Of a stretch of 64,000 nt of DNA, positions 11,701 to 15,995 are shown one piece after another. The stretch is taken from assembly GCA_023920165.1 (NCBI GenBank), contig CP089277.1, positions 1,984,001 to 2,048,000 on the forward strand, in the 5' to 3' direction. This DNA comes from Curvularia clavata (taxonomy: Eukaryota). Position 1 is the stretch's first letter. Every line of letters begins with the position of its first letter. Made by a program: the position numbers and the translations under genes. A model generated the notes under the pieces. It saw only the letters and a list, made by a program, of their open reading frames with translations. It was not told the origin of the DNA and ran no database searches.

Positions 11701-13258
11701 TTAATCCGTCCCATCACCCAACCTCATGGTACTTAGATTCCCAGCCCTAACCTTTTGGATATGCTCAATTGCCTCAATCAGATGCGGCACAAACTTTGCC
11801 GGGTTCTCTGTGGCAGGGAAATGGCCTAGATCAGGCATGCTCTTGTGCATGGCGCCGGGGATCTTGTCGGCCGTCTTCTGCGACATCTCGGGCGTGTTGG
11901 ACCAGTCGTATTCGCCGGTCAGCATGTATACGGGGCAGCTTTGCGTGTCGATAGATGCGACCCGGGATCGGCCGTCCCAGCCGCCAAAGTAGAAGTCGAG
12001 GTCCCCGTGGAAGATCTGAAGAGGGTTAGATAGGGAGGAGGCGGAAAGCAGGGAGGGGGAGATACGTACACCATAGGCTTGAGCGCTGTATGTGTGCCAA
12101 ATCAGTTGTTTGTTCGCTCGAGGCGCAGTGGGAGCCATCATCTGCGATTTGTCAGCTACGGTTGACTTGGGAAGAAGTGTCGTCTACGCACGCCATAAAC
12201 CCACTCTGGGTTAAACAGTGACTGGTTGACAAAAGGGGAGCGGTCGTGCCACTGGCGTTCCATGTTGAGATATTCGGAACTGCGACAATCAGCATTGAGA
12301 CTCAAGGCATTTTTTTCCCTTTGCACCTACCCTTGCAGAGGAATAGTACCAGCTGCACCAACTTCTCTGTGACGAATGGCGACTGCAAGGCAGACTTGGC
12401 CCGCCATACTTGCACCGCAAATAATCGGTCGACGTAGACCTAGCTTCTTCACAAAAGCCGCAATGATGCCTACGTAACTGTCCTCGGTATTCGTATGCGC
12501 GGTAGCGTTTTTCGTGGGGAAACTGCGTCCATGTCCTGGTAAGTCAAATGCGAACATGGTGCATTTCTTACGCATCCTTATGTCATTCATGACACCGTGG
12601 TACTGTCGGCTGTCGCTTCCAGCAGTATGTAAGAATACGATAGGCTGCTTGCCTTCGCCAGAGTACTCGTAAAAGACCTTGCTTTATTGCCACATTCAAG
12701 GTCAGTATATTCTCACTTATGTGTTTGGTGGAAGAAGTTTACGTACCACCGACCCCATACTGGAGCCTCGAGGTATACATATCTTCCCGTAAGAAAGTCA
12801 TTGTCAGGCTCCACCTGCTCTTCTTGAATTGGCCCGCACTGTGCTTCGTGTAGAAGCTCGAGGACGCGTCTCCAGACATGGGTCCACTGTGCAAAGGCTA
12901 TCTGATCGCCCAGAACCTCGATGCCCTTTTGTTTAATGTTCATACCAAACATTCCCCAGTAGCTTTGATATGGCATAGCAGGAACTGGCTTGAAATGCTG
13001 CTCCCACTGCTCCGGGAGCGCCGAAAGAGTAAACACTGCATCCTTAGAGGTGCCGTGGCTCAGTTTCGCGCTGCCGTTCGTAACAGTGACGAGAATTGTA
13101 TTCTCGGACGAACTCGACTTGATACCAAAAGTCACAGGTTTGTCAATAGCATTCGAGGTCACAAACGCTTTCAATTGGTCGTCAGACTGTAGGAGCTTAG
13201 GTAGCTTGTCTGATACTGCTCCCTTCAAAGCGGTGGTGAGGTCAGACCAGTCCGTCAT
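11701..13258 (-). CDS. alpha/beta hydrolase with N-terminal SCP2-like domain, multi-exon
   Basis: Spliced product has IVFLHTAGSDSRQY, FDLPGHGRS, GASMAG, LTGEYD and LGHFPATENP. The N-terminal ~150 aa has an SCP2-like pattern (DAVFTLSA..W..IEVLGD). Confidence 0.8.
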
Positions 13259-14506
13259 GGTTAGTTTTCAAGATACGATGGATGGGGTCGGTGTGAATCC
13301 TCAAAGTAGACAGAGGCAAAAAAGATGAACAGGAACAACAGTAACTGAGGCACCGATGAACGGCGCGCTCTGTACATATAACCACGCGTAGACCCCCAGT
13401 ATCCTCCGCGCGGACCAGCTAGCTACCAAGCTACAAGGAGGGGTAAGCCTGCAATGCGGGGTTGGTGGTGCACACGTGGGCGCATAACTCGACTATTGCT
13501 CGTCATGATCGCTGAACTCTAACCAGTATCCGCCGCTGACCTGACCGGAATGGGATGATAGATTGATGGAATGTGTTTCGATGGGGAAACGAAGGATGTT
13601 AGATCCCTTAGTGCATCCACCGAATGTAAAGAGAGTCGGGTAGGTAATAGTACGGACTTAACAACCCTAAGCTCCACTGATGTCGACTGATGTCCTCCCC
13701 ACCTCACCTATATGACGTCTGTTGTCTACCTCCTCTTTGGTCTCTCCTGACTCGTCCTCGGGCAAGCGGGTTGTCAGTCCCGTCGCTCTCTCCGCGGCTT
13801 CAGCTCCTATTCAGCTTCCTGGTCAATTAGAATCGTGAGGATCACTTGTTAAAACAGCACAAGACATTGAACTGCGTCGCAAATGGGATATCAGGCAGAG
13901 TGATGAGCATTATGAGACACATGACACGAGGGTGAAATTTCGGTTATACTGAAAGAAAAGAGATGGAACCTGCTATCGCGTTTAGTGAATTACAGTAAAT
14001 ATGATTCACATTTGCAACCGTCCATAAACCACTCCCCATGCACCATCCCATGCGACTCATAACCTCACTCGAATAGTAGGAAGTAAAACCTCCCAGAAAG
14101 TGGTATCCTCGCTCGCGCTTCCAAATGCAAATAGGACGTTCTCCCGTCAGAATGTTTCGTTCTCCAGAGACTCGAGGGACTCAGCAGATAAGGGGGATGA
14201 GATAGACACTAGAGGATGTGCAGGTGTGAACAAACTAGCAGATGTCGTAGACTCTGCAGACGCATACGAGGATGGAGGCGATAGAGATCCCACTGACACA
14301 GAAGCTCGGACAGACTCGTTGACTTGCAGGAATCCAACAGCTTCTGCAGCTTTGATGACTTTGGCACATTTGTTGACTCTGGTAACTCCAGTCGCTCCGG
14401 CAGCGTTAGACTCCACAGATGCCTCTAGCAACGCTTTAGCATCCAAAATGACCTGCTTGAGCTCCCTTCTCATCCTGTCTGGAGCATCAAGAGGACTGTC
14501 GCTCGG

Positions 14507-15563
14507 CTAGAACGTCTCCTCCTCAACACCCTCTGCCTCTGGTGGAATCTCAAATCCTTCTTCAGTCGAGTAGAGAATGGTCTGGATTTGCTTGAGCAGA
14601 CCCTCATCCTTCTCGAGCTCAGGGTCAGCCTCCATTGCTTGCTGAATCAACAGCTCAATGTCGCGAAGTTTGCTGAAGTAAAAGTCTCGCTCACGCTCAA
14701 GGCCAGTGACGGTCTCCTTGAGTGCGTTGTTCTCCTCACGCAGCGCGGCGGAAGCAGCCCCACCACCAGAGGCAAGAGGGGTACGTGTTCGGGGGGCAGC
14801 AGTGTTGCTAGCGGCTGGCGCTCTCCGGGCGGCGGTGGTGGTACGGGATGCAGGGGCGGCTCCAGTGGAAATACCACCCTGGCCCTTGCGACGAGCAACG
14901 GCGTCGTATTCGTGGCCGGGGAAATGCTGGTCCCAGTACTGCTTGACAAACTGGAGGAACTCGAGGTTATCCTGCATCTTGCACTTGACCAGTGACTCGA
15001 CGCGGATGGGCTTGTCGATCTGGTGCTTGGCGAAAGTGTCTACTAGGTCAGTCGGAGGAATGACAGAGGGCTGTTGAACATCTGTAGATGCCAGACACAT
15101 TGTATAAAGTTGACATACTCTGTAATATCTTGAAGTTCTGCAGGTATGCATACTCGGTGTTGGCGTTGAACTTGACTCGACTCATGGGTACATCATCTGC
15201 ACGCTGTTAGGTTTAACGTCGCTCTCTGGACAAGCGGCTTGGAAATCCTACAGAATATGCTGTCGAAGACCTGGCACAATGCCGCTCTGCAACAAACCAT
15301 CAGTATGTGCCCTTGGAAGCGCCTAGGGGCCGTTGCCCCTCGATGTATCCTGTGGATTGACGTACCCGGTACCGCATTGTTCGACCTTTGTGATGTTGAG
15401 CTGGAGAAGGTTGTTCAACCAGGCAACGAGTTCCTGTCTGTACGATTATCGCTGTTAGCCCATGTTCATAGTACGATGCGGCGTCTCGCCCAAGGAATGT
15501 CTGGCAGGTGCCTAAGCCTAAACACGTCCCCCCACTTGGACAGGCGTACCTTGATTCACCCAT
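14507..15563 (-). CDS. BIM1: EB1/Bim1/Mal3 microtubule plus-end binding protein, 5 exons
   Basis: Spliced MGESRQELVAWLNNLLQLNITKVEQCGTGAALCQVFDSIF CH domain, QDNLEFLQF, EBH motif LERERDFYFSKLRDIE..ILYSTEEGF, and acidic-aromatic tail EEETF. Confidence 0.95.
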
Positions 15564-15995
15564 GGCGAGTATCTATATTCGGGCGCTGTTCTGGGGCGAT
15601 CGGCAATGTGCTAAGAGCATGCGAGGGCAAGGGGTGCGAAGGCTTGGTGATGGACAGCAGGTCGTCGTCGAGATTGCTGTTATTTGTTGATGCGCCCTCG
15701 TTGTTCGGCGGCTTGACATTTTGGGCGCCGTTGCCCCACGAAGGTTTTAGCGCCCTGTCGGTGCGTCGAGGCCACGTGATCTGCCCTTGTGATCTGCCCT
15801 TCACAAGCACCATGTATATAGGCAATTGAGATGTCTATAAAAGTCCACACAATAAATGCTACTACGCCATTATGATTCGGCTAGATGGTAATGTGATGTT
15901 TTCTTCTTTCTCATCATCTACGCGCAACGCTTATATTCCACCTGTACGTGCATACACAGCCCTGGATCGCCGCTTGGATCACCTCCACCTTGTGT

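Follow-up and report, generated by a model that had tools for sequence, protein, structure and literature searches.

The 64,000-nucleotide (nt) stretch of Curvularia clavata DNA analyzed here (contig CP089277.1, positions 1,984,001 to 2,048,000; hereafter the window) carries on its minus strand a gene for EB1/Bim1, a hub of the microtubule plus-end network, and the reading frame of this gene stays open for a further 119 codons behind its TAG stop. Exon joints taken from spliced RNA contigs define a gene model of five exons with a spliced coding sequence (CDS) of 732 nt, which encodes 243 amino acids (aa). The EB1 C-terminal motif (PF03271) was recognized by Pfam in the last exon with an expectation value (E) of 1.9e-16 and 60.6 bits against a cut-off of 27, AlphaFold2 modelled the C-terminal part of the protein as a long helix followed by a short helix, and the spliced N-terminus (MGESRQELVAWLNNLLQLNITK...) presumably belongs to the EB1 calponin-homology domain, which it resembles. 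The coding sequence ends with GAG GAG ACG TTC TAG, and thus in the tail EEETF. The ETF of EB1 docks CAP-Gly domains only with a free carboxylate. An earlier note on the locus, here called the original prediction, had stated that the open frame behind this stop runs for 119 codons, closes with a second ETF ahead of a TGA, and spells the two tripeptides with different codons. The sequence and its open reading frames (ORFs) agree exactly with that description, the two ETFs differing in their codons for E and for T. We refer to the 119 codons between the two stops as the extension and to a putative protein that would span both parts as EB1-long.

Evidence at the RNA level was available as assembled contigs of four runs (X1, X5, X13 and X14) from four studies. 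Rare variants are dropped from such contigs, which record neither strand nor true transcript ends nor developmental stage; X13 and X14 are metatranscriptome runs, and uncovered parts (e.g., 13344-13839) were excluded from the evidence. A single contig of X1 (record 2) extends from 13692 to 15685 with the four introns removed and is jointless across 13692-15039. The stop codon is bridged by contigs of X13 (14307-14714) and X14 (14068-14684), and the stop together with the extension was covered unspliced by contigs of all four runs. The EB1 mRNA carries the extension. The original prediction had considered that the message might be polyadenylated before position 14147, i.e., ahead of the second stop; the X1 contig runs well past that point. 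It had further suggested looking in RNA for an A to G change at 14508 and for joints that skip the stop. Neither was seen: no letter other than those of a plain TAG occurred at 14507-14509 in the four contig sets, and no joint removed the stop, with the limit that rare variants and rare splice forms are lost on assembly and that the stage of the source material is not recorded. Counted from the TAG, the 3' untranslated region (3'UTR) of EB1 measures about 815 nt (13692-14506), a long 3'UTR for a filamentous fungus.

Over the extension, the codon score in the EB1 frame was 0.093 and thus inside the spread of coding sequence, as compared to a mean of 0.139 (standard deviation 0.113, n = 70) for coding segments of the window, and the other two minus-strand frames scored -0.25 and -0.36. 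The AlphaFold2 model of the window protein showed a helix at model residues 90-120, with a predicted local distance difference test (pLDDT) score of 72-84 over residues 91-110. A helix at the same place was predicted (pLDDT about 75) for L008, a related locus with a short extension, and in both models the helix is flanked by the disordered EB1 tail on one side and a disordered end on the other. The helices share the consensus ELxxVIxxAxALLE, about 15-20 residues after the stop. The spacer that follows is highly variable in length across lineages, whole extensions spanning 39-119 codons. The original prediction had guessed that the longer isoform would gain a helix and a Ser-rich spacer, and the model, which gives a helix and then a low-confidence tail, is in good agreement with this guess. 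No Pfam family was found in the extension, and a search of the ESM Atlas returned no usable feature match, all structure rows falling under the bar (model pLDDT 0.42).

For a comparison across relatives, metagenome contigs were fetched with the last exon, the TAG (written as Q) and the extension as one protein, which yielded 26 loci. Identical pairs (L001/L002, L004/L005, L011/L013 and L019/L026) were counted once and L012, which ends before the stop, was left out, so that 21 loci and the window made up 22 lineages. In eight loci an intron follows the residues ...YSTE, and the true tail was located by the motif GFE[IV]P...E[ET]F-stop. Neighbours of the EB1 gene in the window recurred at several of these loci, namely the downstream gene in L008, L010 and L011 and the upstream gene in L007 and L009, and this partial synteny indicated that the loci are orthologous. 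An EETF or EEETF tail stood immediately before the EB1 stop in all 22 distinct lineages. Nine close lineages (the window, L001, L003, L004, L007, L008, L009, L010 and L011), with 77-88% nt identity over the last 300 nt of the CDS, bear an extension. The EB1 stop is TAG in every one of the nine (17 of 22 overall), and the frame behind it is open for 119 codons in the window, 101 in L007, 76 in L009, 51 in L001, 50 in L003, 41 in L008, 40 in both L004 and L010, and 39 in L011. An empirical estimate from these loci puts the probability of 39 or more open codons following any stop at 0.25 per lineage, and the joint value for nine of nine is 4e-6, a figure that overstates independence, the lineages being related and their tree poorly resolved. 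Conservation of the TAG itself was discarded as a stand-alone argument, as a neighbouring synonymous Thr site deviates from the majority in 7 of 22 lineages and the stop in 5 of 22.

Between lineages, the DNA after the stop is only 46-67% identical, which is near the level that global alignment yields for unrelated sequence. For a homology test on the level of peptides, the 22 loci were translated in six frames, giving 4,193 stop-to-stop ORFs that included about 17 post-stop in-frame ORFs. A profile built from database proteins only (see below) placed the post-stop ORFs of L001 (E 1.4e-3) and L007 (2e-2) on ranks 1-2 of the 4,193, and iteration of the profile brought in L009 (1e-2) and then L004 (5e-3). 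In phmmer searches, L003 and L004 retrieved each other at 2e-3, and L008 was paired with L010 at 1e-2 and with L011 at 0.16. Profiles of L003+L004 and of L008+L010+L011 were reciprocal top non-self matches (E 0.1 and 0.069). Every top match in these searches was a post-stop in-frame ORF, and as an internal control the extensions of L016, L019 and L021, which belong to other clades, gave no matches in the same ORF search. The codons ahead of the first Met of the window extension (PSDSPLDAPDR) align in frame with L001 (PGGGALPDTPEK) and L007 (TGDSAPLDTPVN), both lacking an ATG at that place. An ATG before the helix is absent in six of the nine lineages (L001, L003, L004, L007, L008 and L010), and three of these (L001, L003 and L010) lack one throughout the extension.

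The EB1 frame is the sole frame that is stop-free in all nine lineages; the best antisense frame contains stops in five of them. In aligned extension codons, differences were distributed over codon positions 1, 2 and 3 as 188/145/234, and frame-blind DNA alignments placed 9 of 11 internal gaps in multiples of three. Rough ratios of nonsynonymous to synonymous substitution rates (dN/dS) were 0.31-0.72 in seven pairs, with dS saturated in three more, values which are biased downward because the underlying alignments were guided by protein. The original prediction had proposed an alignment of orthologous 3' regions, and on two of the counts that it named the outcome was favourable: the frame was conserved in nine of nine lineages, with peptides homologous in the EB1 frame only, and dN/dS was below 1, at roughly 0.3-0.7 in the seven measurable pairs. 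Judged from these comparisons, the in-frame tail behind the EB1 stop evolves like protein in the window and eight relatives.

The only close lineage with a TGA stop, L006, has no extension (5 codons). The corresponding region (L006:3529-3600) resembles a clean absence or deletion of the whole extension combined with a change of the stop codon. A tree of EB1 (528 nt) was poorly resolved, with 1 of 10 inner branches starred and L006 unplaced, and independent gains or losses could not be counted on it. In a more distant clade, L018, L022, L023 and L024 have a TAG followed by 11-12 codons (MEKHDEIVAAF and similar) that end in AAF and again a TAG; L018 differs by a 3-nt insertion, and the four loci are too alike for a test of coding constraint.

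Relatives of the extension were also present in protein databases. A phmmer search with the 119-aa peptide against 1.84 billion representatives (E <= 0.001) found three proteins. One of them (P0001/P0004) comprises 108 aa and is 98% identical to the extension ORF of the window. The second, likewise of 108 aa and with 54% identity, represents a cluster of "hypothetical proteins" from five named Bipolaris species, all with exactly 108 codons and aligning to the window ORF without gaps. The third (P0003) consists of 89 aa and ends in SETF. All three begin at the Met of extension codon 12, and a profile search revealed no called homologues beyond the same three clusters. The 108-aa Bipolaris "hypothetical proteins" are probably the tail of EB1-long.

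We next consider the end of the extension. With the database proteins included, acidic residues and a terminal F occur in 6 of 11 lineages, namely NETF in the window, SETF in P0003, SEMF in L007, EETF in L008, EAIF in L010 and EEIF in L011. Among 3,971 ORFs of the same loci, 2.8% end in F; against this background the recurrent terminal F is far above chance, even if it reflects just two or three retentions by descent. A terminal F is absent in the other five lineages (Bipolaris, L001, L003, L004 and L009), and the Bipolaris extension ends in KNTL in all six members of its cluster. The assumption of the original prediction that a longer isoform would keep the docking motif is thus supported in part only, an ending that resembles the motif being present in six lineages and absent in five. 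Across the lineages aligned here, the conserved element is the predicted helix, and the regained tail depends on the lineage. Between the profile of the extensions and that of the EB1 tail, hhalign reported only a 6-column match of the tails (E 0.069, probability 0.8%).

A conserved box was detected in the 3'UTR of EB1. It follows the pattern TGCATTKG...GGGATACCAYTTT and is present in the window, L001 (3838-3866), L003, L006, L007, L008, L009, L010, L011 and L014, always shortly after the last in-frame stop. Its GGATACC core is invariant in the 10 aligned lineages; 10 of the 11 close lineages that were scanned have it (L004 does not), as does the distant L015. The distance from the extension stop to the box is 31-44 nt in six lineages; in L006, the box follows the main stop at 46 nt. 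The extension is thus inserted between the EB1 stop and the box. The region 13600-14700 had no match in Rfam (E up to 1) and the consensus fold of the box amounted to -0.08 kcal/mol, effectively nil. The box may be a protein-binding site in the EB1 mRNA. The features of the locus are compiled in Table 1.

Table 1. Coordinates of the EB1 gene, the in-frame extension and the flanking 3'UTR in the window
Feature	Position	Strand	Remarks
EB1 upstream exons	15119-15196, 15252-15286, 15366-15437, 15550-15563	-	ATG at 15563
EB1 introns (GT..AG, n = 4)	15040-15118, 15197-15251, 15287-15365, 15438-15549		skipped in RNA contigs of X1, X5, X13 and X14
EB1/Bim1 last coding exon	14510..15039	-	coiled coil, EB-homology motif, acidic tail to EEETF; Pfam PF03271
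EB1 stop TAG, candidate recoded codon	14507..14509	-	its A corresponds to plus-strand coordinate 14508
In-frame extension, 119 codons	14150..14506	-	open frame; starts PSDSPLDAPDRMRRELKQVILDAKALLEAS, ends SLESLENETF
First 11 extension codons (PSDSPLDAPDR)	14474..14506	-	upstream of the only early ATG
ATG, extension codon 12	14471..14473	-	start chosen by gene callers for a free-standing 108-aa ORF
Predicted amphipathic helix, extension residues 7-37	14396..14488	-	core ELKQVILDAKALLEAS; best conserved part
Ser/Ala-rich spacer	14159..14395	-	pLDDT <50 over most of its length
Second ETF (GAA ACA TTC)	14150..14158	-	end of extension
Second stop TGA	14147..14149	-	
Conserved 3'UTR box TGCATTTGG...GGATACCACTTT	14097..14129	-	just behind the extension stop
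Remaining 3'UTR	13692..14146	-	to the end of the X1 contig, which is not a mapped poly(A) site

Two further observations concern the region downstream of EB1. An RNA contig of X5 continues into the next minus-strand gene (12600-13639), so that the transcripts overlap or read through. In that gene, all four RNA runs show a TCT insertion behind 12818 and a T to C exchange at 12824; the mismatch at 12818-12824 reflects either differing strains or an error in the assembly of the window.

Taken together, the retained frame, the homologous peptides and the pattern of differences lead us to read the extension as a genuine C-terminal addition that is maintained by selection. Its translation as a continuation of the EB1 frame, whatever the route, is likely. 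Six of nine lineages have no ATG before the helix, and the codons upstream of the window ATG show in-frame conservation. These findings are explained most simply by ribosomes that arrive from EB1 and make the peptide. As the most likely route, and one that we hold with middling confidence, we propose near-cognate ribosomal readthrough of the UAG, which needs no special machinery and for which, at a basal level, there is a documented example in a filamentous fungus (PMC12790415). A fraction of ribosomes would decode the conserved UAG rather than terminate, and the resulting EB1-long would comprise 363 aa, consisting of the 243 aa of EB1, one residue at the UAG and the 119-aa extension. The latter would begin with a short linker, continue with an amphipathic helix (about 30 residues) that holds the conserved core, and end in a variable, Ser-rich disordered spacer. 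In EB1-long, the internal ETF would lose its free carboxylate, and a new, more distant tail resembling EEY/F would take its place in the window or none at all in Bipolaris. The helix would be gained in all cases; it might associate with its counterpart in the EB1 dimer or else fold back onto the EB-homology domain, and CAP-Gly partners may be affected. It is also conceivable, though in our view rather doubtful, that the conserved UAG acts as a developmental switch, being edited or read through at a particular stage, when ordinary EB1 would be swapped for EB1-long. Under such a switch the internal ETF would be masked, and the helix together with the distant EEY/F-like tail might rewire CAP-Gly partners (dynactin, CLIP-170) on microtubule tips.

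Several findings weigh against readthrough, in addition to the relatedness of the lineages and the protein-guided alignments mentioned above. Leaky contexts such as UGA-CUA and UAG-CAR-YYA promote readthrough of stop codons; neither UGA-CUA(G) nor UAG-CAR-YYA was present behind the EB1 TAG in any of the 17 TAG lineages. Directly after the TAG, 11 of these lineages have A, 4 have G and 2 have C. The minimum free energy z-score of a window of 30 nt on either side of the stop averages about 0, and no convincing stimulatory hairpin emerged. UAG is not the leakiest stop either: in Neurospora, basal readthrough follows the order UGA > UAG > UAA and is modulated by ribosome composition, according to the accessible part of the report (PMC12790415). 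The extension evolves fast, mean column identity being 29% as compared to 96% in the last 60 aa of EB1, and the terminal F is missing in the five lineages named above. L014 has a TAG and just 10 open codons behind it. L001 (and also L002) contains a second in-frame TAG at extension codon 52 (L001:3688-3690); tblastn homology to the window extension persists behind this second TAG, up to query residue 261, and either the distal part is decaying in L001 or the second UAG is bypassed as well. A fused EB1-extension protein was found neither among 8,000 longer candidates nor among 280 of 162-518 aa, both of which are weak blanks. What the stop context does offer is a regularity of its own. At the third nucleotide after the TAG, 16 of 17 TAG lineages share a G (P 1.8e-8 against composition), and all 17 have a purine at the fourth (window 14501-14506), with positions 1-2 being variable. 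This context, UAG-NNG-R, matches none of the leaky contexts named above; the G and purine could constitute a novel signal, the closing pair of a small loop, or something else. A literature search returned no report on stop-codon readthrough of EB1, readthrough of fungal end-binding proteins, conserved fungal UAG extensions, or the Bipolaris locus tag.

The same EB1-long could arise by A-to-I editing, in which the tRNA deaminase Tad2/Tad3 would convert the UAG to UIG, read as UGG (Trp). By analogy with stop-loss editing in Sordariomycetes, it would probably occur only in the sexual stage. We regard this route as unlikely. In its favour, TAG is strictly kept in all nine extension lineages and the sole close lineage with TGA is the one that has no extension. 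A conserved TAG followed by an extension is the signature that was used for DBF2 (PMC13123824, as far as the report was accessible). The accessible parts of two further reports describe stop-loss editing in hundreds of genes of Fusarium and Neurospora, with a preference for UAG bearing U at -1 (PMC4817773, PMC11156358); the favoured triplet, in which U precedes and G follows the A, occurs here too, which is trivially true of any TAG. Some pairing around the stop was predicted as well. The A falls into a small predicted hairpin loop in five of nine lineages (2.7 expected), the 3-bp core UUC/GRR that would close the loop UAGNN can pair in 14-17 of 17 lineages, and 75% of cells are paired as compared to 40-56% with partners slid, a degree of pairing reached by 10 of 500 shuffles. 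The stability of the hairpin, however, does not exceed that of shuffled sequences (mean z about 0), and its outer two pairs form in only 8-9 of 17 lineages; by itself the hairpin is too weak to bear the case for editing. Taxonomy speaks against this route, too. In the literature found, so far as the sources were accessible, editing is reported only in Sordariomycetes and one Pezizomycete (Pyronema). The same sources describe Aspergillus nidulans and Botrytis cinerea as negative for it and place the origin of the Ame1-Tad3 interaction within Sordariomycetes. Our search found no report of A-to-I mRNA editing in Dothideomycetes, the class of the nearest named relatives (Bipolaris). The accessible part of the stop-loss table for F. 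graminearum (PMC13123824, supplement file 2) does not list EB1 or BIM1 by name. The plain TAG in the RNA contigs points in the same direction, if weakly, these being majority-rule contigs with no record of stage.

Further explanations were weighed as well. The region could be untranslated, being either a tandem copy of the EB1 tail in decay or a piece of 3'UTR whose conservation concerns the RNA, with the open frame and the second ETF a leftover or a product of chance. A hint of a duplication came from L008, where the 41 aa of the extension gave a gap-free alignment with the final 41 aa of EB1 from the same locus (z 3.0, p 0.012), and the distance from extension stop to box is similar to that from main stop to box in the extension-less L006, which would fit an old tandem duplication. 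Similarity to the EB1 tail was, however, not significant in the other eight of nine lineages, and with the profile-profile probability of 0.8% given above a duplication origin was kept as a hint only. The original prediction had argued from the differing codons that the second ETF is not a DNA duplication. This holds for the sequence as it stands today, which may have originated in an old tandem duplication of that tail. In support of an untranslated region, conserved non-coding sequence does occur in the 3'UTR, some loci have long off-frames, too (151 codons in L004), and the antisense frame that shares wobble positions scores nearly as high as the EB1 frame in pairwise comparisons (mean 31.0 versus 33.2, other frames 22-26). 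Against it stands the age of the sequence. A neutral duplicate so old that its synonymous sites are saturated should have lost the frame, which all nine lineages keep, with gaps in threes; conservation at the RNA level, in turn, explains neither the single stop-free frame nor the 188/145/234 pattern. We consider an untranslated region improbable. A free-standing 108-aa protein, made from the ATG at 14471-14473 out of the 3' part of the EB1 mRNA or from a transcript of its own, is what gene callers predicted in the lineage of the window and in five Bipolaris species, with an 89-aa form elsewhere that starts at the same Met, and it would agree with the absence of fused proteins from databases. 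The missing ATG in six lineages and the in-frame conservation of the 11 codons upstream of it in L001 and L007 nevertheless make a separate gene very improbable. Nothing would oblige such a gene to share the EB1 frame, as it does in every lineage; some 1 kb inside a capped mRNA, an ORF is unfavourably located for initiation; and no separate transcript was evident in the contigs, which cannot show transcript ends. Barely credible, finally, are alternative splicing that removes the stop and a coding gene on the opposite strand (plus-strand ORF 14028-14510, 160 codons). Rare splice forms may have been dropped from the contigs, but all four contig sets are jointless within 13692-15039, and splicing would not demand continuity of the frame from the stop itself. 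In the window, the plus-strand ORF spans the extension completely, and the score of its frame ranks second. The ORF is open because its wobble positions are shared with the EB1 frame, and its high score is expected for the same reason. It has stops inside the conserved part in L001, L003, L004, L007 and L010, a first Met only at about residue 108 of 160 in the window, and no Pfam family; with stops in five of nine lineages, we rejected an antisense gene. Its terminal TAG overlaps the EB1 TAG through the palindrome CTAG.

If EB1-long is indeed made, burying the end of EB1 and offering, in some lineages, a new end on a long flexible arm would change the partners that are recruited to the plus-end network, and the few fungal genes in which bypass of a stop codon is conserved would be joined by a structural cytoskeletal one. 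A conserved extension behind a bypassed stop would in itself be a known kind of thing; new would be its occurrence in a central cytoskeletal gene and in an undescribed stop context. As no described leaky motif corresponds to UAG-NNG-R, the alternatives are a readthrough signal of a new kind and editing in a further class of fungi. Should the route be editing, Dothideomycetes would gain an mRNA-editing site, the first one beyond Sordariomycetes and Pezizomycetes.

With regard to known systems, the extension end SLENETF of the window resembles, like EEETF itself, the EEY/F motif of EB1, alpha-tubulin and CLIP-170 that is bound by CAP-Gly domains, in that it combines acidic residues with a C-terminal aromatic residue; unlike in that motif family, the aromatic end is missing here in 5 of 11 lineages. 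Readthrough of UGA-CUA in metabolic enzymes of fungi and animals reportedly appends a cryptic peroxisomal targeting signal type 1 (PTS1). Both cases share a conserved in-frame extension, a function that hinges (here putatively) on the new C-terminus, and a minor isoform beside the main one. The PTS1 cases involve UGA-CUA(G) and short extensions, whereas the candidate described here involves UAG, the context NNG-R and 39-119 aa with a predicted helix, and the motif that is recreated would be the protein's own tail motif instead of a targeting signal. Readthrough genes identified in Drosophila and mammals by comparative genomics (PhyloCSF-type analysis) likewise show coding-like evolution behind a conserved stop and no known stimulatory element; those cases rest on a calibrated genome-wide score, while our analysis draws on nine lineages and hand-made tests. 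Closest among the editing cases is the stop-loss editing of DBF2 in Fusarium graminearum and other Sordariomycetes (PMC13123824), which, according to the accessible part of the report, shares with EB1 a conserved TAG and a class-wide in-frame extension that is fast-evolving and largely disordered, and which was argued from TAG bias, extension length and a hairpin. There, editing was shown by RNA-seq of sexual tissue, whereas the lineage analyzed here lies outside the classes in which editing is reported. The DBF2 extension comprises 24 aa without recognizable structural motifs and acts as a degron. A degron role by analogy is possible for the EB1 extension, too, but would leave unexplained what sets it apart from DBF2, namely the conserved predicted helix and an acidic-aromatic end that recurs in half of the lineages.

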